Positions 1,691 to 57,826 of a DNA stretch of 64,000 bases are shown piece by piece. Source of the stretch: Escherichia coli (GTDB lineage: Bacteria > Pseudomonadota > Gammaproteobacteria > Enterobacterales > Enterobacteriaceae); the NCBI RefSeq assembly GCF_030013595.1, contig NZ_CP122768.1. One strand, given 5' to 3'. The notes beneath the pieces were generated by a model. It made no database searches, was not told the origin of the DNA, and saw only the letters and a list, made by a program, of their open reading frames with translations. Every line of letters begins with the position of its first letter. Position 1 is the stretch's first letter. Made by a program: the position numbers and the translations under genes.

Positions 1691-2100
1691 AATTGCTCCT
1701 TATGAATGATTAAGCGGTATAAATGAAAAAACCGCGTCTCCCGGAGAAGACGCGGCCTGATGGGTGAAATGAATGAGGTTTATTGTCCGGGAAGCCCTTC
1801 ACTGGTGAGCCACGCATTAAGTTGTTTGCCTGCATAGGGTTCAGAATTCCGGCAGCGCCAGCGTCGCTGACCTTCCGCGTTGCGGATAATCCGCCGGAAA
1901 TGCATTCCTGGATAAACACATTGCGGTAAGCTGTTATGACAGCAACTGTCTGTTTGCGTGAGAAAGGATCTTCGGAAAATAAAAGTAATGTACAGCCCGT
2001 CATGTATTTTCAGGTAAAAATAAAGCCCCTGCCATTATGGCAGAGGATTTATTTACATTTGATATTAATAACGCGCAGATAAGATACTATAATTCATACA

Positions 2101-2514
2101 TTAAATTTTGATTTCGTCAAGCCCGACAATCTTATGAATCGTATTGTCGTAAAGTTTAACGCCCGGTTTACCGTTTTTTAGGGTAACGAAACCGGCGGTG
2201 ATGTTGCCTTCACAACTTTGATTGTTGTTGTATTTGATGGTCTGGGCTTTACCGGTATAGAAATTAATTACGCCGTATAAACCATCCCAGCACGCTGTAC
2301 CCCCCATGGCGTGTACCAGACCGTATTGCATGTCTTTGGATGTGCCCAGGTATTCACAACCTCCGTCGATAGTATCAGTACCCTGACACCAGAATTCTGT
2401 ACCGTCAGTAACGTCAGTCAGGTTGGTCGGTAAAGGAACGGCATTGTTTGCTGATACATTAGCAGTAAAGAAACTGATAACTGCAATCATTAAAATAGTG
2501 ATGATATTTTTCAT
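2101..2514 (-). CDS. Hypothetical secreted Cys-containing protein (signal peptide)
   Basis: 137-aa ORF with hydrophobic N-terminus MKNIITILMIAVISFFTANVSA; six Cys in mature part; lies in visibly AT-rich DNA. Confidence 0.45.
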   Translation of the reverse strand: MKNIITILMIAVISFFTANVSANNAVPLPTNLTDVTDGTEFWCQGTDTIDGGCEYLGTSKDMQYGLVHAMGGTACWDGLYGVINFYTGKAQTIKYNNNQSCEGNITAGFVTLKNGKPGVKLYDNTIHKIVGLDEIKI

Positions 2515-2783
2515 GATAAATACTCCATTGTTTCTGATGTTAAATAAAAGTATAAAAACTGTTTCTGCAATACTTATAATCCACTCGAGAGGTCAGGATT
2601 AACCCCCGACTTGTTTATTAAACACATACCTGAAGATATGACCTTCAACATGGTGATATATTTATACTATGTTTCTGACTGTCTCCTGAATCAAATAAAA
2701 TATATCCGTTCCATGATGAACATCATTTACCTGTTAAGAACACTAATAACCTGATTATTTAGCAAACTCTGCGAGAAAGAATA

Positions 2784-3323
2784 TCAGATCGTAAATAACA
2801 CCAGTATCAGCATAACCAGCCAGACCCAGAAATAAGCAGGTTTTTGCCCGAGGATCTTTGCCCGACGCCACAGATAAACCGGGATCAGCCATGCCAGCCA
2901 GCCAAATGCTGTGGTATCAACACCAGATTTACGGAGTTTTCGTTCATCCAGATATCCCAGAGCAATATTCAGAATCAGAGAGATAAACCAGTACTGGCCT
3001 TCGCTGACTGCATCATAAGCCCGTTCAAATGACATACCGTTCAGCCCGGCAGTCCACATCTCAAGTATGTACCCAATCAAAGGGGCAAATGCCAGCGTCC
3101 AGACAACGTCTCCGGGAATGCGGTGACCCGGAAGGGCCGGAGGAACTTCACTTTGTTTCAGTATTTCCGCCAGTGATGTGGCTGAAACTGGCTGCCATTC
3201 CAGCATGCCCTGTTGCCACACCAGTGTTGATGCATTCAGTTCACCACGCCGGATACGTTCGATAATATCTTCCTCTGTTACGTTATCATAACGTACACCA
3301 TTTTTTTCATAATGCCAGTTCAT
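2784..3323 (-). CDS. Membrane protein with N-terminal DUF4339 (GYF-like) domain
   Basis: 179-aa ORF; N-terminus MNWHYEKNGVRYDNVTEEDIIERIRRGELNASTLVWQQGMLEWQPV fits the W-Y-x-NG...TLVW..GM..W pattern of DUF4339; C-terminal half has hydrophobic helices. Confidence 0.5.
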   Translation of the reverse strand: MNWHYEKNGVRYDNVTEEDIIERIRRGELNASTLVWQQGMLEWQPVSATSLAEILKQSEVPPALPGHRIPGDVVWTLAFAPLIGYILEMWTAGLNGMSFERAYDAVSEGQYWFISLILNIALGYLDERKLRKSGVDTTAFGWLAWLIPVYLWRRAKILGQKPAYFWVWLVMLILVLFTI

Positions 3324-3447
3324 CTGATTCTCCTGTTAATCATTCAGTTAATAAAACATGTGACATCCAAAACAAAAATATTTTTATGATATTCATTTTC
3401 ACTCACTGTATTAAATTAAACTGAGGTGTTTTACACCACGTTATCAA

Positions 3448-25961: not shown

Positions 25962-26621
25962 TCAGAGATGGTATGCCGGTACTTTGCGGGTTGTTCCCGT
26001 CAGGTTATCGTGCACCTCCACGGTCGTGGTCACCACCGGCATTCCGGCCTTTCTCAGCCTCAGAACATCAGCCGCAATACGCTGACTGCCAAACCAGAAC
26101 AGGCCGTCCAGTGCAGTCACCAGTAAACCCGCCTCCAGTGCATACTTCAGCCGTTCACGGGGCGCTTTCACTTCCCGGGCAACCTGCTGATATGGCAATG
26201 ATGTGTTTTCATTCCCAACCACGCGACGAATACGGTGAGACAGATGATACCGGTATGTATCCGGCACACCAGAAAGGCTGGCCTTCAGGCTGTACACGCA
26301 GCCAAACCGTTTATCGTTAAACACCTCATTTTTCTGGCTGATGCCCCATTCTTCACGCAGCGCGGCAATCAATTGCGGTGTACGGGTAAGCAGCAAGCGA
26401 AAAGGCAGTTCAAAACTGGTGACGTAATCCACATTCAGCAGTGCAATACGCAACCGTTCTTCTGGCCCGGCCTCTGTCTGCCGGCACTCCTCCAGAACAT
26501 CCTGCCACTGCCGGCGAAGACGGGGGGATTCGTTCCGTTCTGTAAAACAGTATTTATCCGCCAGATAGTCAATTCGTGTACGCATACTGAAAGGAATTCC
26601 GTATAAAGATTCAGCAGACAA
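25962..26621 (-). CDS. Hypothetical prophage-type protein (possibly YagK/YfjJ 'inovirus Gp2' family)
   Basis: 219-aa ORF; family suggestion rests on size and island context only. Confidence 0.35.
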   Translation of the reverse strand: MSAESLYGIPFSMRTRIDYLADKYCFTERNESPRLRRQWQDVLEECRQTEAGPEERLRIALLNVDYVTSFELPFRLLLTRTPQLIAALREEWGISQKNEVFNDKRFGCVYSLKASLSGVPDTYRYHLSHRIRRVVGNENTSLPYQQVAREVKAPRERLKYALEAGLLVTALDGLFWFGSQRIAADVLRLRKAGMPVVTTTVEVHDNLTGTTRKVPAYHL

Positions 26622-26673
26622 AACTTTATCAGCCAGTAAAAATTAACGGAAGCATTGATATTCCTCCCGACAA

Positions 26674-27183
26674 TCACCGGATGATTGTTGCAATAACCTG
26701 CGACATAAAGGACTGAACAGCCGTTTTTAACGCCACGTATTGCCCTGATGAACCAGGCCGGGCCACCCGAAAACATCTTTCCACCCGGCATTGTCCGCCA
26801 GCACTTATCACCGACCAGGTCTGTTGCAGTAAATCCACCAGTTGCGCACATTCTTCATCAGCCATGACGCCGACTCGCGGATGGCAAATACTCGTCTGGC
26901 TGAGCAGCAACAGACATCGTATCTGTGCTCCTTCATGTTGTTCCCGCAACCAGCGTAATACCACCGGCGCTGATGGGCTGACCGTGTGATTATGCTCCGT
27001 AATACGTTCGTGTACCCGTCGGTGAAAGGAACTACAAAATGTCTGAATCTGTTGACCATAGATTCCTTCTGCCGAATAGAGCGTGAAGTGAAATGCCAAC
27101 AGATTTGGCCAGTGGTCCACCGCCTGCTGAACAAAACGCCGGATTTCCCCCGGCTCTGAAATTAAGGCTTCGGTTATTTGCAC
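26674..27183 (-). CDS. Hypothetical prophage-type protein
   Basis: 169-aa ORF directly upstream of 25962-26621 on same strand; could be the N-terminal part of one split gene. Confidence 0.35.
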   Translation of the reverse strand: MQITEALISEPGEIRRFVQQAVDHWPNLLAFHFTLYSAEGIYGQQIQTFCSSFHRRVHERITEHNHTVSPSAPVVLRWLREQHEGAQIRCLLLLSQTSICHPRVGVMADEECAQLVDLLQQTWSVISAGGQCRVERCFRVARPGSSGQYVALKTAVQSFMSQVIATIIR

Positions 27184-27628
27184 GAAATGTTCCTTTTCAA
27201 CCCCTGTTGAATTTTGTCAAGCCGGTGCAGACACAGTAAAGCGCGCATCAACACCTGAAAGGTACGATACAAACACAAGTTACAAACAATAAGAACGGAA
27301 GGACAATTAATCAGTGAGGAATAATAACTAAATTAACCAAAAGAATGTTACTGACAATACTACCAATACTTAAATAGCAATATATTAATTAATGTAAGAA
27401 CAGATGCCCGGTAGGACATATACACAATACATCCACAAACACACTCTTTTCATTAAATCAATCACCTGATTAAACCATGAAAGTGTGATGTAAGTCAAAA
27501 TTACTGATACTATCAATTGATAATGATTATCTCTATCATTATCGTGAAATTCGAGAATGAAAGGAGAAGTAGTCATTATAAGCCTTTTATAAATCGTCAT
27601 CATCATAGTAAAGTAGAACACTTTTTAT

Positions 27629-28099
27629 ATGAGTTACTATATGAAAATATACTGGACAAGAAAACGTATTCCTGAACTTTCAGCACTTCCACCTTCATTA
27701 AGAAAGAAAAATTTTACTGACGCATATAATGCAGCATCTTCTCATATCGAATACTGGATAGGTGCTGGCGTCTCATTTATCTCGATGATGATTTTATCCA
27801 GAGTATATGACTTTCTTTTACCCGCCCAAGATACTTTCCCGGGTGATATCATCAGAAGTTTATGTGTTGTGTGTCCATCCATATTAATCTGGTTTCAGTT
27901 TTCGGTATATGTCATGAGGAAATATTACAGACATATTCTGGTGCGAGGAAAAGAAACCGAAACCATTTCAGAAAGGTTGATACGTGAGGCTGATACACGA
28001 GAATATGAACTATGGCGTCCGGTCCGTCGCTTTTTCTCCATTGTTTTCCTCATTGTTCTATTAGGTTGCATTCATTCACTGATAACAACTATAAAATAA
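27629..28099 (+). CDS. Hypothetical membrane protein in AT-rich DNA
   Basis: 156 aa with at least three hydrophobic segments; strongly AT-rich codon usage. Confidence 0.35.
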   Translation: MSYYMKIYWTRKRIPELSALPPSLRKKNFTDAYNAASSHIEYWIGAGVSFISMMILSRVYDFLLPAQDTFPGDIIRSLCVVCPSILIWFQFSVYVMRKYYRHILVRGKETETISERLIREADTREYELWRPVRRFFSIVFLIVLLGCIHSLITTIK

Positions 28100-28336
28100 A
28101 AGTTATGGCTGTTCTGATACAGGAAAATAAACGTTCATTCTATGGTTACCTCTTCCTGTTATATAGAAGAATTTTAAACGACAAGTAAGGGAATATAAAT
28201 GAAAATAACAAAAAATAAAAATGCAACTATAAAAAACAGTCATCAGTCGGCTGCTTTTCAATGTTTACCTTATCATTTTCTGGTAATGCTGCCAACTTAC
28301 TGATTTAGTGTATGATGGTGATTTTAAGGTGCTTGC

Positions 28337-28612
28337 GTGGCTTCCATTTCCATCAGATGTCCTTCCTGCTCCGCTACTGAAGGCGTGGTGCGTAACGGCA
28401 AAAGCACTGCCGGACATCAGCGCTATCTCTGCTCTCATTGCCGTAAAACATGGCAACTACAGTTCACTTACACCGCCTCTCAGCCCGGTAAGCACCAGAA
28501 AATCATTGATATGGCCATGAATGGCGTCGGATGTCGCGCCAGTGCACGCATTATGGGCGTTGGCCTCAACACGGTTTTACGTCACTTAAAAAACTCAGGC
28601 CGCAGTCGGTAA
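28337..28612 (+). CDS. insA: IS1 InsA
   Basis: 91 aa [40 protein letters not shown]... zinc-finger protein. Confidence 0.9.
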
Positions 28613-29034
28613 CCTCGCGCATACAACCGGGCAGTGATGTGATTGTCTGCGCTGAAATGGACGAACAGTGGGGCTACGTCGGTGCTAAATCACGTCAGCG
28701 CTGGCTGTTTTACGCGTATGACAGGATACGGAGGACGGTTGTGGCGCACGTCTTCGGTGAACGCACTCTGGCCACACTGGAGCGTCTTCTGAGCCTGCTG
28801 TCGGCCTTTGAGGTCGTGGTATGGATGACGGATGGCTGGCCGCTGTATGAATCACGCCTGAAGGGAAAGCTGCACGTTATCAGCAAGCGTTACACTCAGC
28901 GCATTGAGCGACATAATCTGAATCTGAGACAACATCTGGCAAGGCTGGGACGGAAGTCACTGTCGTTCTCAAAATCGGTGGAGCTGCATGACAAGGTCAT
29001 CGGGCATTATCTGAACATAAAACACTATCAGTAA
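28531..29034 (+). CDS. insB: IS1 InsB (transposase frame; expressed as InsAB' by frameshift)
   Basis: 167-aa ORF overlapping insA in the -1 frame, classic IS1 arrangement. Confidence 0.9.
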
Positions 29035-29050
29035 GTTGGAGTCATTACCT

Positions 29051-29311
29051 GAGAATAATACCTCCTGGGTAAGTGAGCAGATACTTTCAGCGCCTCCGAA
29101 AGATGTAAATATTCGACTTGGAGTCGGTTCTTTAGAAGGTACAACCGTCTCACATGTTCAGCGATTGCATCATTCGTTAATCGCAGCTGGTTTGGAAAGT
29201 AACCTCACTGTCTATACCGGTGGTCACGATTATGCCTGGTGGCGCGGAGCAATTATTGATGAATTAGCAAATTATAATTGCAGGAAGGTATCAAATAATA
29301 ACTCTGTGTAA
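29051..29311 (+). pseudogene. C-terminal fragment of an alpha/beta-hydrolase esterase (Fes/IroD/IroE-like), truncated by IS1
   Basis: Open frame continues straight out of the IS1 right end; ...LTVYTGGHDYAWWRGAIIDELANY resembles enterochelin-esterase-family C-termini. Confidence 0.35.
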
Positions 29312-29452
29312 AATATCGTTTTATCGTCAGATAACTCTTTCTGCAATATTATTATGGGAGACTATCTCATTTATTTAGTGATGTCCTTCATTTATGTGAT
29401 GAAGGACATTATATTACTCATAACATTTCTCGTTGAAAATTTCAGCAATACG

Positions 29453-30577
29453 CTACAATTGTTTCCCGTTGTTTTTTAATTTTCTCATCAAAACCTCTGC
29501 AATCTCTGCAGGACTGGGTTGTTCAGCCATTTCAGCGGCTACCTGATCTGAACAGAAGCGTAGTGAATCATCATAAAGAAGGCGATTTACCAAATCACTG
29601 GTCAGTCCATGCTTGTCCGGAATAATCCCACACCCACGCTTCGCAACAATTTCTGCATTAACAGAGCGATCTGCACCTTCGCCAAACACAATCTGTGGTA
29701 TTCCACTATACAGCGCTGTCAGGGTATTACCTGCGCCACCGTGATGAATAAATCCATCAGCTCCATTAAGGAATACACCCATAGGTATCCAGTCAACCAG
29801 ACGTACATTTGATGGTAGTTTTCGTAAACCAGTACGAGCATTTATTGCAAGTTGCAAAATGATATCAGCATCAACTTCATTTGCAGAATCCATAACCCAT
29901 GAAATCAGCTCCAGACCATCAACCATTGGTTTTACAGTGCCAAGGCTGATAAGTAAACGTTTCCGATCAGAATCCCTGTCCCACCATGTTTCCTTTACAG
30001 CACCTCCGTTATAAGGAATATATCTCATTGAGATAACCGGTTCTCCAGCATTTTTAAGAATGCTCATACTTGGGGGAGCAACATCAATCCATGCTAAATC
30101 ACATAGTGGACCGCTGACTCCATGCCGCCTGTAAGCATTGCTTAAAGAACGGTTTAACATCTGAATATGGGCAGATGTATGCGCGAATCCAACAGCCAGC
30201 ATCACTGAAGGAATTCTATATTTAGCAGCAACCAATGGGCCTGCCGGATCAAGAGGGGGATAGACTATTAAATCTGGCCTCCATTTTCCTGCAAAATCGA
30301 TGAGGTTATCTGCCATTTCATCGCTAAAAAAAGAGAAATGACCAATAATATTACTTTTTTTCCTCAACTCTTCCTGATGGCGATATCCAGCCTCTGAATC
30401 TAAACCTGGAACTGCATCAAAAACAACCAGTCCAGCTTCTGCTGCTTTATTCGCGAATTTGCCAGCGCTACTAATTACTACATCATGTCCAATTACACGA
30501 AAGGCCTGAGCCAGAGAAATCAATGGGTATAACAAACCGTACAGCGGTGGGCCAATAAAAAGAATACGTTTTCGCAT
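29453..30577 (-). CDS. iroB: Enterobactin C-glucosyltransferase (salmochelin synthesis), orphan copy
   Basis: 374 aa; MRKRILFIGPPLYGLLYPLISLAQAFRVIGHDVVISSAGKFANKAAEAGLVVFDAVPGLDSEAGYRHQE... and GT-B C-terminus HHGGAGNTLTAL match my recollection of IroB along the whole length; no iroCDEN nearby. Confidence 0.8.
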   Translation of the reverse strand: MRKRILFIGPPLYGLLYPLISLAQAFRVIGHDVVISSAGKFANKAAEAGLVVFDAVPGLDSEAGYRHQEELRKKSNIIGHFSFFSDEMADNLIDFAGKWRPDLIVYPPLDPAGPLVAAKYRIPSVMLAVGFAHTSAHIQMLNRSLSNAYRRHGVSGPLCDLAWIDVAPPSMSILKNAGEPVISMRYIPYNGGAVKETWWDRDSDRKRLLISLGTVKPMVDGLELISWVMDSANEVDADIILQLAINARTGLRKLPSNVRLVDWIPMGVFLNGADGFIHHGGAGNTLTALYSGIPQIVFGEGADRSVNAEIVAKRGCGIIPDKHGLTSDLVNRLLYDDSLRFCSDQVAAEMAEQPSPAEIAEVLMRKLKNNGKQL

Positions 30578-31306
30578 TAAAAAAGTCCGTCTTCTGCTTA
30601 CCTGTTTATTTTTCTATCTCTAAGAAAACATAATTAATATTATTTTTATGTGAGCTTATGCACAAAAATAACCAAGTATATTATCTTCTGGTAGAGATTC
30701 AGGATACAGTTTGTAGGAGCTTTCTTTTTTGAACAATGATTTGCAGGACAGTTATGCTAAACTAGCGGAATCAGTATCACAACAATAAATGACTGATCAT
30801 ACCTGAAATTTGAATTAACAGGCATCATGAATGTCAATAGTCTAAGCGGTGACTACTTATATCGCTTGCATAAATACTAAACACTGACTAGAAAAGTATT
30901 GGATAACCCCGTCACTAAAAGTAACGCTTCGGTTATTTGCTCGGAATGTATTAACGCCAAGATTGTTAGCCGTTACGCCTTATATCACTGGCGCTGACAA
31001 ATGTTTCTTTTCTAATTTACTGAACCGGCGCAGACACGCAGGAAAGCACGCCGGCACCGGTGTAATGCCAGTTCTAATCAATAAGAATGGAATGACGAAT
31101 CAGTCAGGAAGGGATAACAACCCGCTGCTGAACGGAAGGTATCAGCAGGAAGATGAACGGGAATATCGCCAGCACCAAGGGCAGGGCCGGGTTCCACAAT
31201 ACCAGCGCTGGCATTTTGCACATTGCCAGCGTACCGGCATTACAACACGTTTCATGCTGCTGCCCCCCAGGATTCCTCGATTCGTTGCTACATCCACTGC
31301 TCTACT

Positions 31307-31504
31307 TCACTTCCACTGCTCCACTTCACTTTTGTACCAGCGGCTGCTGCGCCCCAGTTTGATGGGTTTAGGGAAATGGCCTTCACTGATCAACTTGTAA
31401 AACCATTTGTCGGTCATACCGGTGAAACTGGTGATATAGTTCATGTCGATCAGGGAATTATCGGCACGCAGAAATACGCTGTCGTGGCTTGTTGTAGTCA
31501 ACAT
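31307..31504 (-). CDS. AlpA-family phage regulatory protein (excisionase-like DNA binding)
   Basis: 65 aa; ...YKLISEGHFPKPIKLGRSSRWYKSEVEQW matches the AlpA motif (F-P-K-P-x-K-L-G...W...EV..W). Confidence 0.65.
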   Translation of the reverse strand: MLTTTSHDSVFLRADNSLIDMNYITSFTGMTDKWFYKLISEGHFPKPIKLGRSSRWYKSEVEQWK

Positions 31505-32989
31505 GGTCAGAATGTCCTGTGAGATTTATGAAGATTGTGCGAATGCGGGAAATCTACTGAGCTGTGCTTTCAGAACTGGCCTGTTACGGGATACCAGGGA
31601 TTACCGGCGGGGTAACGGGCTTCCGGATCATACACACCACGATTATCGCGGACAAAATCACTGAACGCCCATATCACCTCTTTAAGTATGTCTTCGCAGT
31701 CCGGTAAATGACGATCCAGCGCCACATCCCGGGTGGTACAGCTTTGATGCGCCCGGTGACACAAAGCCCGGATTGTTCCAGACATCCTGAATCAAACGCC
31801 CCAGATTAGGGGCGTCGAAATATGCCTCTCTGACCATTATATTCCGGCGTATAGGTAGCAGGTCTGAAGTGACAATGCGTCACCTGACGTTAAAAGTCAC
31901 CCAAGATGACCCCAGTGGGGGCAACAAGTATAAAACCGTTTTTTGATTAAGTGGTCGGATATGAAAAGGGGAAGGTTTATGTGAAAAATACCTGTGTTTT
32001 CTTTGAAAACACACAACAGTATCAGGTTATTTATGTTTATACAGTGCGTTCCAAACTGACCTGAATAATTACGCAAGTTGCAACAATAAAACATTTTTGC
32101 CGTAGTGTGAGGTACTCCGGTAAATTGCTTCCCAGGTGCAGACAATGACTAACGAAGAACTACAGGCAATCGCATTATCCATGCTTGAGCGCCAGCGCGA
32201 AAAAGTACACCAGCAACGAGAGTCTTTGCTTAACCCATCTCCATTCACCAGGCCAAAACGATTGGAGCTTGAAGCATTCTTGGACAAATACCCACGGCGG
32301 CTTAAATCAGGCAAAACCAGACCACCAGGCTGATAGCTCACAGTTTGTTCTCCGATTCAATAAAACGGATAAGAACCATCAGCGCGGTAGCGTAAGGCAC
32401 TACAGCGCATTGCTTTACGAGTAATAACAATGGATTTATCACCAGAAGACGCAAAGTTTTTACGAGAACTGCAACATCGTATGCTCAGAGAAGCCATTAT
32501 CGAACAGCAAACGGGCATGAGCGCCATAGACCCATTGCGATACAAACGGGCCTCATCTCCTTTAGTTGACGACAATTCCAATGCGGATAAAACACGTCCA
32601 CCACACTGATTACATTTTTCATTAGCACAGTGGTGTGATGCAGCATACGAGGAAAACCGGATGAATGAGAACAAAATAAAAAGGCTGGAGCAACTGTTAC
32701 AGGCACGCCAACGGGAGTTTGCCACTAAATGGGGACGTGCCGCGCTGCCACATGAACGCCTAACCTATTTTCCACTTGAAGACCTCATTAAAAATAATGG
32801 CAAAAAAATCAGGTCTGATAAGAAACACTTCTTAGAATGCAATGAAGACAAATAACAACAATCTGCATATTGCCACCAACCACAGATGTGGCATCGTTAT
32901 CAGCGCACTTGATTTTCTTTATATCCACTGACGAGTTTGCCGGTCATTCTGGTATCATGCAGATATTTACGGCGTACAAGCACACTAGC

Positions 32990-33540
32990 ATGACATTGTA
33001 ATAAGGCCTGAGCCTAACGCTTTAATGTGTGTCATACACTCAGTGGCGTAATCGTTGACAATATGGTGCATGTAATCGTAAGCGTCCAGCGAAATCCATC
33101 TGGTCATAATCTGAAGCATCCGACAAAGTGGTGTCCACCAAATAAGTGATCTGCGCCCAATATCCTGAGCCGGAACTTTGACAAAGGCCAACGAAAAATG
33201 GGAGCGGATGTTACAGAGTTCCCGGTACAGGGGAAAAGTGGTACCTGTCGCCAGTTCTCCGATCTGTTTAACCGGGAAATTATCTCCTACAGCTTGTCAG
33301 AAAGGTCGGTGATGGAGCATCGTTAATACGATGCTATACGATGCATTCACAGTGCCCGGCCAGAGGATGCCCCGTCGCTGCATATGGATCAGGGTTGGCA
33401 ATATCGAATTGCAGGCTATAGGCAAAGTTAAAGCCCCATGGAGTAGCACAAAATATGCCGCACAAAGGAAACGGTCTGAATAACGCAGTGATGAAGAACT
33501 TCTTCAGCACACTGCTAAAACGCATAGTGATCGAGCGCTG
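32990..33540 (-). pseudogene. IS3-family transposase debris (several frames, both strands)
   Basis: Plus-strand frame ends ...NGLNNAVMKNFFSTLLKRIVIER (IS3-family C-terminus) near 33530; other short transposase-like stretches nearby; no intact ORF. Confidence 0.4.
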
Positions 33541-36205
33541 ATTCTGGCGAACAACTGAACTAATACATCAGAATCTGCATTATGTTAAATAAATATAAAA
33601 AGATGGTTTAAATACCCCGTTACTTTTGACTTACACTATACGGTATCGCATCGTTTAATATTCGCACCGGCCAGATTTTTATTTCTATTAGTTGTCACAA
33701 TACTGAATGCGTACGACCACAGTATTCTGGCTCCTGTGTGGTTATGCTTTAATTCTGCGTTCCGGGCAGATAAGCAGTTGCTTGCAGGAATCCTTCTTGT
33801 GTTAATGTCAGTTCCCCTTTTACCAGTGCTGATTTCCACATTCCGTCCAACAGAGCTTATAGCCTTTCCCTGGATTATAGCATTGTCCGGCTGAAGTTCT
33901 TTTTGAATAATAATAGAAGCACTGCTGGCAGATCCAGTCCGTTTTTCATAACCCACTGTACTGATAACCATAATCTAATCAGTAGAAATTGAGTCGAAAA
34001 TAAGCACTACTCCATACAGGATAATTAGAGGTCAGTTTGATTATTCACAATTCATCATCAGCATTTTCTATTTCTGACGAAATCAATATGAAAATAACCA
34101 TATATGATAATTATTATAATAACGGCTTTAATTGGAATACATATATTACAACGTATTATATATAATTGGTATTCTGGGAACTATATTCTCAAAATACAGT
34201 AGAAACGAGGTATGTTTCTGGTGGAAAGGACAGTGGGATTAAAAAGTAAGAATTGATAAAAAAAACGCCAGCAACACATAGTGCCGGCGGAGGGAATACC
34301 CCATGGAGAAAATGTGATGCCTAGAGCATCATGAATATATAATTAAAAATAGTTAGCGTTGTCAATACTTTCACAAAAATAATTTTCGTAGTATAGAAAG
34401 ATATTTTTATGCATGACCTACCTGAATTTGCTCCGGGTAGAGGTTATAAATAAAAATTGAATCACGACAAACACAATATTCATAGTATGGCGATGCCTAC
34501 GCCAGCAAGAATAGCGCCAATAATATTGGGAATATAATAGACACCAGACGCACAGGCATCTCACTCCTTAACAAACAACAATCAGGATATTTACTTTTAC
34601 CAAGCTAACTGTTTACACCCAAAGTACACACAATTAACCATTCAATAACAAATGGCAATATCCATAGCCATACGACTTTACCTTGTAATGTTCGGTATTT
34701 CTTTATAATTATTCTGGGAAATCTAACATTTATTTTTAAAATCAAATTATCTTGTTGTTTAAAAATAAGTTCACATACTTTATCATCTTCTTCCGCCATC
34801 AACATCTCTGCATACTTAAACATTTCAGAACGTTCCTTTAGCACAGAAGAGTAATTATATGTCCAGTTCCCAGGCAATAATGCTTATGGATATTTAATTC
34901 ATAATTTAGAGAATATTTTGCAATAATATTTGGCAGTATTCAGAAATACCTGAAAAATCATACTATACAGCCCTAGGGAATGGATAAAGATTCTAACAAA
35001 GCATTTCAACAATATATACTTGTTAAAAATCCATATCGAAATGCCGTTGCAGCATTAATATATGCCTCATTCATAAAATGTAAAAGAGCAAGCTCGTACC
35101 AGTAGGGGGGAAATTCATTGACATGTCCTGTCAATACGTACAGAGCCCTGCCATGCTTGCCAGCACGTAACAATTCCGCCCCCAGTAACCAGCGTGTTCC
35201 CTGATTATTCTCAGGGTTATATGTTAGTATTTTATCAATGAGTATAACGGCATCCTGATGACGCTGTAAATGAACATTCGCCAGAATTGCAGCATAAAGA
35301 GCGCAAATGCATATGCCAGATGAGCGTGAATATCAATGATGTCAGGAGCATGTCAGGCAAGACGCCTGAGTTTGTTGACGTAATTTGTTTCGTTTATTTC
35401 ATCACTATCGTATGCGTCAAGAGTTTTTTCAAACTCATCCCGAAATGGGCCAAGCCTGGTTTCAGGAAATAAGAAATACCCTTGGTTATTGTTCACTTAA
35501 AAGTATAATTTGTAATTCAAATCCTGAGCCTGTAAAGCGGGGAGTAACATATTCTATTCTGAAGAGAATAAAAGTCGTGATGCGATGTATCAAGCCCGGA
35601 TTGTAATCCCAGATTAACATAGATCACAAAACAACTTATTCTTCACTAACGTCAAGATAAATATCGTTGTATGCCTTATCACGACTACGAATACCAGCAA
35701 GATACAACTGACATACGGAAAGATACCACGTTTTTTACTCCCGAAAATAACGCTAAAAAGCTACTTCCCCATCGTTTGTCCTTAGTATTGCCAGCGCCAA
35801 CAATGTGGGCTGACATGATAAAGCTGTCTAGGAAATTGTTCGCCTCCTCAGCGGACAATCCAAATGGTGATTGTCTCTGTTAAACGTTTATTTTGAAGGT
35901 CGACTGAATAAGGTGATGACGCTGTAGAATTTTTCACGTGCCACAGAATTTTGAACGCTTTCTCTTACAATATTTCAATGTTTCTATCAGTATTCGCCGG
36001 AAGAAGTCATCGACCAAATCATCCCAGTCGTCTCGCATCACTGACCATTCATGGTTGACATGTGGTGGAAATCCGCTTCTACAGTAACCATTTTTTATTC
36101 GCAAAACCGAACACGCCATACGGATAGCTGTTAACTGGCATGCCGAGGCAGTCGTTATTTATATTTGGTTTTGTCAATAATCTTTATTTTTTGTAAAAGG
36201 CAAAT

Positions 36206-36224
36206 ATAAATTATTCTCATTATT
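36206..36224 (+). promoter_or_regulatory. Candidate Fur box upstream of iha
   Basis: ATAAATTATTCTCATTATT matches the 19-bp Fur consensus GATAATGATAATCATTATC at roughly 12 positions by eye; ~50 bp upstream of the iha start. Confidence 0.4.
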
Positions 36225-36275
36225 GTTTGTATTTGTGTATTGTCTTGCCGGTTAACATGATCGGAGATTAGTAAT

Positions 36276-38366
36276 ATGCGAATAACCACTCTGGCTTCCG
36301 TAGTCATTCCCTGTCTCGGATTTTCAGCCAGCAGCATAGCTGCTGCAGAGGATGTGATGATTGTCTCGGCATCCGGCTATGAGAAAAAGCTGACTAACGC
36401 AGCCGCCAGTGTTTCTGTGATTAGCCAGGAGGAATTGCAGTCCAGCCAGTACCACGATCTGGCGGAGGCTCTGAGATCAGTAGAGGGTGTGGATGTTGAA
36501 AGTGGTACGGGTAAAACCGGAGGGCTGGAAATCAGCATCCGAGGAATGCCAGCCAGTTACACGCTGATACTGATTGATGGTGTTCGTCAGGGCGGAAGCA
36601 GTGACGTGACTCCCAACGGTTTTTCTGCCATGAATACCGGGTTCATGCCCCCTCTGGCCGCCATTGAGCGTATTGAGGTTATCAGGGGGCCGATGTCCAC
36701 ACTGTATGGCTCTGATGCGATGGGCGGTGTGGTGAATATCATTACCAGAAAGAATGCAGACAAATGGCTCTCTTCCGTCAATGCAGGGCTGAATCTGCAG
36801 GAAAGCAACAAATGGGGTAACAGCAGCCAGTTTAATTTCTGGAGCAGTGGTCCCCTTGTGGATGATTCTGTCAGCCTGCAGGTACGCGGTAGCACACAAC
36901 AGCGTCAGGGTTCATCGGTCACATCACTGAGCGATACAGCAGCCACGCGTATTCCTTATCCCACGGAGTCACAGAATTATAATCTTGGTGCACGTCTTGA
37001 CTGGAAGGCGTCGGAGCAGGATGTGCTCTGGTTTGATATGGATACCACCCGGCAGCGTTATGATAACCGGGATGGGCAACTGGGGAGTCTGACGGGGGGA
37101 TATGACCGGACCCTGCGCTATGAGCGAAACAAAATTTCAGCTGGCTATGATCATACTTTCACCTTCGGAACATGGAAATCGTATCTGAACTGGAACGAGA
37201 CAGAAAATAAAGGTCGTGAGCTTGTACGCAGTGTACTGAAGCGCGACAAATGGGGGCTTGCCGGTCAGCCGCGGGAGCTTAAGGAATCGAACCTTATCCT
37301 GAATTCATTACTGCTTACCCCTCTGGGAGAATCTCATCTGGTTACGGTGGGGGGCGAGTTTCAGAGCTCGTCCATGAAAGACGGAGTTGTCCTTGCCAGC
37401 ACAGGTGAAACTTTCCGGCAGAAAAGCTGGTCGGTATTTGCTGAGGATGAGTGGCATCTCACGGATGCACTTGCGCTGACTGCGGGCAGCCGCTATGAAC
37501 ATCATGAGCAATTCGGGGGACACTTCAGTCCGCGTGCATATCTGGTCTGGGATGTGGCAGATGCCTGGACGCTGAAAGGCGGTGTGACCACGGGATATAA
37601 GGCACCCAGAATGGGGCAGCTACATAAAGGGATTAGTGGTGTGTCCGGGCAGGGAAAAACAAATCTACTTGGTAACCCCGACCTGAAGCCGGAAGAGAGC
37701 GTCAGTTATGAGGCTGGGGTGTATTACGATAACCCCGCCGGTCTGAATGCCAATGTCACAGGTTTTATGACTGACTTCTCCAACAAGATTGTCTCTTATT
37801 CCATAAATGATAACACCAATAGCTATGTAAACAGCGGAAAGGCCCGGTTGCACGGTGTGGAATTTGCCGGCACATTGCCGCTGTGGTCAGAGGATGTCAC
37901 GCTGTCACTGAATTACACCTGGACCCGAAGTGAACAACGTGATGGTGATAACAAAGGTGCGCCGCTGAGTTATACCCCTGAACACATGGTGAATGCGAAA
38001 CTGAACTGGCAGATCACCGAAGAGGTGGCATCATGGCTGGGTGCCCGTTATCGCGGGAAAACACCACGTTTCACCCAGAATTATTCGTCACTGAGCGCTG
38101 TACAGAAGAAAGTGTATGATGAGAAAGGAGAATACCTGAAAGCCTGGACGGTGGTGGATGCAGGTCTGTCGTGGAAGATGACGGATGCCCTGACGCTGAA
38201 TGCTGCGGTGAATAACCTGCTCAACAAGGATTACAGTGACGTGAGCCTGTACAGTGCCGGTAAGAGTACGCTGTATGCCGGTGATTACTTCCAGACGGGA
38301 TCATCAACAACAGGATATGTGATACCTGAGCGAAATTACTGGATGTCGCTGAACTATCAGTTCTGA
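36276..38366 (+). CDS. iha: TonB-dependent outer-membrane siderophore receptor / adhesin (IrgA homologue adhesin)
   Basis: 696 aa; signal peptide; plug-domain and 22-strand barrel features; C-terminal ...YWMSLNYQF aromatic end; length and sequence match recalled Iha. Confidence 0.8.
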   Translation: MRITTLASVVIPCLGFSASSIAAAEDVMIVSASGYEKKLTNAAASVSVISQEELQSSQYHDLAEALRSVEGVDVESGTGKTGGLEISIRGMPASYTLILIDGVRQGGSSDVTPNGFSAMNTGFMPPLAAIERIEVIRGPMSTLYGSDAMGGVVNIITRKNADKWLSSVNAGLNLQESNKWGNSSQFNFWSSGPLVDDSVSLQVRGSTQQRQGSSVTSLSDTAATRIPYPTESQNYNLGARLDWKASEQDVLWFDMDTTRQRYDNRDGQLGSLTGGYDRTLRYERNKISAGYDHTFTFGTWKSYLNWNETENKGRELVRSVLKRDKWGLAGQPRELKESNLILNSLLLTPLGESHLVTVGGEFQSSSMKDGVVLASTGETFRQKSWSVFAEDEWHLTDALALTAGSRYEHHEQFGGHFSPRAYLVWDVADAWTLKGGVTTGYKAPRMGQLHKGISGVSGQGKTNLLGNPDLKPEESVSYEAGVYYDNPAGLNANVTGFMTDFSNKIVSYSINDNTNSYVNSGKARLHGVEFAGTLPLWSEDVTLSLNYTWTRSEQRDGDNKGAPLSYTPEHMVNAKLNWQITEEVASWLGARYRGKTPRFTQNYSSLSAVQKKVYDEKGEYLKAWTVVDAGLSWKMTDALTLNAAVNNLLNKDYSDVSLYSAGKSTLYAGDYFQTGSSTTGYVIPERNYWMSLNYQF

Positions 38367-57282: not shown

Positions 57283-57582
57283 CCGCACAGCTTCAAACTC
57301 CACATGCACACGCAAGCGACCAAATTTCAAATGGTCTTATGCCGTGCGCACAGTCATAAGAAGCGCATGCGGAAAGTCAGAAAATATCTTAAGACGCAGA
57401 TTTTAAAGGCGTTTTTATGCCAGTCTGCCGGGAATACACAGTAGTCCGGTTGTCCGGAAGCACCACGGTAATCCGAAGGAAAAATCAACGTACCTCAATC
57501 ACCGTAGTGATATCCGTTCCCAGAGGCTAAACGGATGTACCACCATAAAGGCATCCTCTTTCAGGCTACGAGGATATTGCAA

Positions 57583-57671
57583 TCACCCGAAGGCGTTTCT
57601 CTCAGATTGCTGAAACATTGGCTGGCAGTCACCCGAAGGCGTCCCTCTCAGACTGCTGGAACATTGGCTGG
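57583..57671 (+). repeat. Tandem direct repeat, 2 x 43 bp separated by 3 bp
   Basis: TCACCCGAAGGCGTTTCTCTCAGATTGCTGAAACATTGGCTGG / TCACCCGAAGGCGTCCCTCTCAGACTGCTGGAACATTGGCTGG. Confidence 0.8.
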
Positions 57672-57826
57672 TCGCAAAAGCGACAGTTAATGCAAATACA
57701 GGTTAACAAAAAGGGAAATCTGCCGTCAACCCAACCATATGAACATGTTGATTTCATTATGAATGTGATGTTCTAATATAAATTAATCAGTAACTTCATA
57801 AAAAGAATATAAGAAACAGATAATGC

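Follow-up and report, generated by a model that had tools for sequence, protein, structure and literature searches.

The iha locus and its surroundings

The window, that is, the whole stretch of 64,000 nucleotides of Escherichia coli DNA that was analysed, carries the iha coding sequence at 36276–38366 (+), which encodes a TonB-dependent catecholate siderophore receptor/adhesin of 696 amino acids and was assigned by sequence identity and profile matches. The first-pass annotation had placed a candidate Fur box upstream of a gene that it named iha, and the name was confirmed: a 501-bp query over the site matched many STEC chromosomes, O157:H7 among them, at 100% identity, their records annotate the downstream ORF as 'bifunctional siderophore receptor/adhesin Iha', the protein scored 1618 bits on the NCBIfam equivalog NF010012 (cut-off 924) over residues 1–696, and PF07715 and PF00593 (Plug domain and TonB-dependent beta-barrel) both matched. 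Among 5426 complete E. coli genomes, a match to the 501-bp query was found in 1510. By direct reading, a Shine-Dalgarno-like GGAG is located at 36263–36266 (+), 10 nt before the ATG. RefSeq/PGAP additionally lists a 60-aa 'hypothetical protein' (WP_000922604.1) at 36155–36337 (−), antisense to iha, which recurs in most genomes. Its ORF spans the iha start codon, the 5′ UTR, the Fur operator and the promoter, and in regulatory DNA this rich in A+T the call is most probably spurious.

iha is found on mobile islands and plasmids. In O157:H7 strain F1273, its neighbours are IS fragments and the tellurite-resistance genes terD/terC, a setting that corresponds to the tellurite-resistance and adherence island SpLE1/OI-43/48. 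Colinearity of the whole window with F1273 was considered and rejected, as it holds only for 26205–36347 (99.95%). The segment 16723–26204 (about 9.5 kb) has no counterpart at that place in F1273, and 1–12735 matches F1273 at 92–98% only; the window therefore comes from another copy, or another variant, of this island. RNAs identified in the window comprise STAXI at 57534–57685 (−) and an IS102 RNA at 11369–11605 (−), as well as the iron-related sRNA Esr41 (Rfam RF02676, 103 bits) at 34257–34330 (−), 2 kb upstream of iha. The Esr41 promoter has a −35 TTGACA at 34365–34360, with a weak Fur-like site (34342–34360, 13 bits) over the spacer. A further Fur-like site of 17–18 bits lies at 34100–34124, just downstream of Esr41 and about 130 bp upstream of a 111-aa ORF at 33636–33971 (−). 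Esr41 has been reported to repress chuA, cirA and bfr (PMC5286369).

The strongest Fur box of the window is not that of iha; it is located at 27519–27537 (within 27513–27543), reads TTGATAATGATTATCTCTATCATTATC and matches the consensus at 17/19 positions with 22 bits. It is situated in a divergent intergenic region, about 100 bp upstream of a membrane-like ORF of 152 aa (27641–28099, +), for which no Pfam hit was obtained. Downstream of the box follow a CPBP-endopeptidase fragment, an IS1, an alpha/beta-hydrolase fragment and a glycosyltransferase that shares 71% identity with IroB of CFT073, and the same locus also takes in 29453–30577 (−). Judged by its gene content, the locus resembles an iro-like or siderophore-microcin cluster that has decayed but would have kept its iron-regulated promoter. 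Two more Fur-like stretches were recorded, one at 32608–32626 (−) with 17.9 bits in the seeded matrix (see below), 36–54 bp ahead of an ORF that the F1273 record lists as hypothetical (64 aa), and one at 3385–3403 (region 3382–3403) with 19.3 bits, about 60–80 bp upstream of the ORF 2784–3323 (−), which has a GYF_2 domain. Both could be real Fur sites or AT-rich false positives.

Consensus matches, weight-matrix scores and layout of the operator

The first-pass annotation had pointed to the 19-mer at 36206–36224, with roughly 12 matches to the Fur consensus counted by eye in an AT-rich promoter region. This 19-mer is the classical Fur-box register, reads ATAAATTATTCTCATTATT on the plus strand and AATAATGAGAATAATTTAT on the minus strand (reverse complement), and lies 52–70 nt 5′ of the iha ATG (36276). 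By direct counting against the classical 19-bp Fur consensus GATAATGATAATCATTATC, 12/19 positions matched on the plus strand, exactly as estimated, and 13/19 on the minus strand; the AT-rich setting was likewise borne out, with 75% A+T in 36150–36275. Both counts are inside the range of bound sites (11–17/19), yet they are frequent by chance in this AT-rich DNA: 109 19-mers of the 64-kb window have at least 12 consensus matches and 34 have at least 13, and among dinucleotide-preserving shuffles of 36076–36275 or 36150–36275, at least 12 matches were attained in 42–44% and at least 13 in 11–13%. The use of the match count as proof of a Fur box was dropped for this reason and, the count alone being non-significant, an independent weight matrix was built.

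The matrix was derived from the Fur ChIP-seq summits of E. coli CFT073 (Banerjee et al. 2020; PMC7157518, Tables S1 and S5). Sequences of ±100 bp around 18 strong CFT073 Fur peaks, with iha left out, were searched for a common motif by expectation-maximisation on both strands. The iroN entry (Table S5A) was also excluded from the training set, because its listed coordinate falls within the coding sequence, without a motif there. In PMC7157518, Table S5A gives the iroN peak at 1198978, about 800 bp inside iroN and without a motif at that place, while the interval searched for iroN in Table S5B is 1197956–1198177; since the S5B interval differs, the S5A coordinate is probably a typographical error. 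Unseeded expectation-maximisation recovered the Fur box with a 3-bp shift in register, as AATGATAATGATTATCATT, and seeding with the literature consensus yielded GCTAATGATAATAATTATC.

Using the unseeded matrix, 17.64 bits were obtained at 36203–36221 (−) and 15.44 bits at 36209–36227 (−); the seeded matrix gave 15.18 bits at 36206–36224 (−) and 14.08 bits at 36200–36218 (+). The scores of this cluster took ranks 4–7 among the ~128,000 positions of the window, 17.64 bits being rank 4 and the consensus-seeded 15.18 bits rank 5. Only 0.3–0.5% of dinucleotide shuffles attained 17.64 bits, and 0.9–1.0% attained 15.18 bits. The number of hits expected at the iha score in a 200-bp promoter (400 positions) was 0.0002 for the composition of the window and 0.008 for the local composition of 75% A+T. 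Among the other 200-nt tiles of the window with at least 60% A+T, 2/52 attained the iha score, and these two may be Fur sites too. When the 18 bound sites were scored in a leave-one-out procedure, values of 9.6–28.9 bits were obtained (median 18.4), with 7/18 below iha; at 17.64 bits, the iha site thus scores like experimentally bound Fur sites. Match counting was uninformative in this AT-rich island DNA, whereas the matrix from bound sites discriminates. A reading of site affinity from the PWM score was dropped, as score and ChIP peak height were not correlated (Spearman rho 0.08).

Taken together with the dyad units, the four registers, 36200–36218 (+, 14.1 bits), 36203–36221 (−, 17.6 bits), 36206–36224 (−, 15.2 bits) and 36209–36227 (−, 15.4 bits), form a cluster of overlapping Fur boxes of about 28 bp at 36200–36227, assigned as the Fur operator of iha. 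Its high-scoring registers are paired at a 6-bp offset (36200/36206 and 36203/36209), and it contains imperfect 7-1-7 units at 36205–36219 (10/14) and 36211–36225 (9/14), with weak dyad symmetry. Registers paired 6 bp apart and 7-1-7 units are the usual build of overlapping Fur sites. The Fur-box sequence assigned to the iha promoter is AAATATAAATTATTCTCATTATT, and the part of the operator at 36212–36219 reads TATTCTCA. The 19-mer of the first-pass annotation accordingly lies inside the operator; its extent and strand needed amendment, in that the minus strand reads better and the operator is wider, about 36200–36227. Upstream of the operator, a weaker Fur-like stretch was noted at 36170–36194, which covers the best −35-like hexamer (TTGTCA, 36171–36176), matches the consensus at 11/19 positions and reaches 10.7 bits at 36176–36194 (−) and 6.4 bits at 36173–36191 (+) with the seeded matrix. 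This stretch may act as an auxiliary site that extends Fur occupancy.

For the promoter itself, a scan for sigma-70 hexamers returned four near-equal candidates on the plus strand (7.0–7.2 bits), none of which stands out. Among them are a −35 TTGTCA at 36171 with a −10 TAAAAG at 36194, a −35 at 36183 with a −10 TAAATT at 36207, and a −35 TTGTAA at 36191 with a −10 TATTCT at 36212, so that the candidate −10 hexamers occupy a zone at 36194–36217 (+). A stricter promoter scan of the iha upstream region returned no plus-strand promoter. Every sigma-70 candidate puts the operator over the −10/+1 region; because the candidates are ambiguous, the overlap of operator and promoter is given here as a likely arrangement. 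The literature search, whose reach did not extend to the original mapping studies, found no nucleotide-level account of the iha promoter.

For the comparison of alleles, 240 bp were aligned from six iha variants, namely this window, CFT073, two other chromosomal types, a chromosomal allele of 92.8% identity and a plasmid allele with no more than 86% identity in its upstream DNA. A core at 36202–36221, AAATATAAATTATTCTCATT, was identical in all columns in 6/6 variants, and the DNA further upstream varied at many columns. A search of 5426 complete E. coli genomes found a 51-nt core (36190–36240) in 1476 of them, identical in 502 records and with about one mismatch in 974. This conservation is to be read as weak evidence, since it extends to the proximal promoter and 5′ UTR as a whole and since iha is a recent arrival by horizontal transfer, which leaves little divergence to compare. 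A search of a plasmid collection for diverged iha promoters outside Escherichia returned none, all 57/57 hits being E. coli. Across 36060–36300, the window differs from CFT073 at two positions only, both upstream of the box. At 36167, the window has G and CFT073 has A; at 36201, on the upstream border of the operator, the window has C, as in the O157-type allele, and CFT073 has T.

Published Fur control and the weighing of explanations

The iha promoter and its Fur box were reportedly mapped by Rashid, Tarr and Moseley in 2006 (Microb Pathog 41:207). The passage of a review that cites Rashid et al. 2006 states that iron represses iha through Fur, and a citing sentence speaks of a regulatory SNP upstream of the iha Fur box. 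The SNPs at 36167 and 36201 are compatible with that sentence, and the one at 36201, at the edge of the operator, could account for the reported strain difference in Fur regulation. In CFT073, a Fur ChIP-seq peak with a height of 649 was found at 3450905 for iha (c3610), a fur mutation raised iha RNA 181-fold, a ryhB mutation did not change it, and iha was classed as a direct Fur target with a peak within 300 bp upstream (Banerjee et al. 2020, mBio; PMC7157518). The statement in the first-pass annotation that iha is iron-regulated is therefore upheld, both by the 181-fold derepression in the CFT073 fur mutant (PMC7157518) and by the Fur/iron repression reported in the review.

The published peak was mapped onto the window. 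In CFT073, iha is on the minus strand with its ATG at 3450866, which puts the ChIP summit 39 nt upstream of it, and CFT073 has the same box at the same distance to the ATG with identical PWM scores. Transferred from CFT073, the summit corresponds to window position 36237, 22 bp from the centre of the box; these data come from CFT073, a UPEC strain and a different strain from that of the window, and ChIP-seq resolves positions to tens of bp. Motif-to-summit offsets of the training sites ranged from −34 to +53 bp, and the 22 bp of iha are inside this range. Within ±100 bp of the summit equivalent (36137–36337), the cluster is the sole one above 11 bits, the next-best site outside it reaching 3.2 bits (unseeded) or 10.7 bits (seeded). 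The consensus search by FIMO in the ChIP-seq paper (q<0.02) listed motifs for 17 CFT073-specific targets and none for iha (PMC7157518, Table S5B). This omission reflects the stringency of that search, not the absence of a motif, because the matrix from bound sites scores the site well. Position-weight-matrix scoring, which had been proposed as a check in the first-pass annotation, thus spoke for the site at 17.64 bits when the matrix came from bound sites, and the consensus-based FIMO search remains on the other side: by that threshold the site fails, so that the refuting outcome named in the first-pass annotation, a PWM score below threshold, is partly borne out in the literature. As for the candidate box, PWM scoring and ChIP mapping support a real site, while the roughly 12 matches originally offered in its favour are non-significant alone.

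The iha Fur operator is real and already known, having been published in 2006 and 2020. Because its Fur/iron regulation was already in print, the finding is an ordinary one, and its importance beyond annotation is small, the 2020 data having confirmed the control genome-wide. The present analysis supplies the nucleotide coordinates of the iha operator, which are absent from the listing of the ChIP-seq study. The best explanation, held here with high confidence, is that 36200–36227 is the Fur operator of the iha promoter. Motif quality, uniqueness in the promoter, conservation and coincidence with the published ChIP peak were observed; Fur occupancy in vivo and Fur-dependent iha expression are taken from the literature. 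With iron plentiful, Fe2+-Fur dimers would bind the AT-rich array of overlapping imperfect Fur boxes at 36200–36227, probably as two dimers on overlapping sites. The array is placed 50–76 nt 5′ of the iha start codon and covers what is likely the −10/+1 region, and bound Fur would shut RNA polymerase out of the iha promoter (promoter occlusion). With iron scarce, Fur would be released, iha transcribed and the Iha receptor/adhesin made. The exact borders of the operator, 36200 and 36227, are estimates from the scored registers.

One alternative takes the AT-rich stretch 36170–36194 as the main Fur contact and the flagged 19-mer as secondary, or as part of a longer region of Fur polymerisation. 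Fur is known to spread along operators rich in A+T, the aerobactin promoter being an example, the stretch is itself Fur-like (11/19, 10.7 bits at 36176–36194 with the seeded matrix) and the best −35-like hexamer (36171–36176) lies inside it; with a box located between 36167 and 36201, the citing sentence on the SNP would hold as well. However, the unseeded matrix gives this stretch 3.2 bits as against 17.6 bits for the flagged cluster, it varies at several columns among iha alleles where the flagged core is invariant, and its distance to the ChIP summit is greater (about 55 bp as against 22 bp), which leaves the alternative quite improbable. The primary Fur contact of the iha promoter very probably overlaps 36200–36227.

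Even more improbable is a chance likeness, in which the 19-mer would be a −10 element, an UP-element or, the DNA being horizontally acquired, a target of H-NS or another nucleoid protein in an AT-rich promoter, and Fur control would be indirect or exerted elsewhere. Such a likeness would fit the 11–44% of shuffles that attain 12–13/19, the lack of an iha motif in the FIMO search (PMC7157518), the several further high PWM scores that this island yields in its AT-rich intergenic DNA and the failure of single-site PWM scores to track peak height (Spearman 0.08). Several observations stand against it: the ChIP-seq study counts iha among the direct targets, its peak (height 649) lying no more than 300 bp upstream and its derepression amounting to 181-fold (PMC7157518); the summit is 22 bp from the box, with no other Fur-like site near; and the PWM score is attained in just 0.3–0.5% of shuffles that keep the local dinucleotide content.

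Starting from the Fur operator at 36200–36227, a more far-reaching joint reading can be put forward, to which we give little credence. Because the consensus search missed the site despite clear ChIP occupancy, the iha operator might be a deliberately sub-consensus Fur site. The C/T difference at 36201 might tune the strength of the site and so give EHEC-type and UPEC-type alleles different iron thresholds. Finally, iha might belong to an unrecognised, island-wide set of Fur-controlled genes on SpLE1/OI-43/48, which would take in the near-perfect box at 27519–27537 before the decayed iroB-like cluster and the Fur-like sites flanking Esr41.

Comparison with known Fur operators

The name iha stands for 'IrgA homologue adhesin'. 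In Vibrio cholerae, the homologous receptor gene irgA is reported to be under iron control by Fur, its promoter bearing a dyad Fur box, and additionally needs IrgB, a divergently encoded activator of the LysR type. No LysR-type regulator gene is annotated beside iha in the O157 record. With the iha Fur box and promoter published in 2006 and 2020, the present site shares locus and gene, the CFT073 box is identical, and no difference could be demonstrated.

Among operators of other genes, the aerobactin iucA box of CFT073, GATAATGAGAATCATTATT, is identical to the iha 19-mer on the minus strand at 15/19 positions, and the second hexamer GAGAAT is shared. Likewise an iron-uptake gene on a pathogenicity island, iucA is Fur-bound in the same ChIP-seq data set. 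Its box matches the consensus at 17/19 positions and passes FIMO, whereas that of iha matches at 13/19, being degenerate in its 3′ half, where AATTTAT takes the place of the CATTATC of iucA.

With the operators of fepA, cirA and fiu, the iha operator shares its function, the repression of a TonB-dependent catecholate receptor. Their scores are also close, with 13–15/19 consensus matches and 16.2–17.5 bits (held-out) for fepA, cirA and fiu, and 13/19 and 17.6 bits for iha. The three differ from iha in that they are core-genome promoters with ChIP peaks of 1765–3285, whereas iha resides on mobile islands and plasmids and has a peak of 649.
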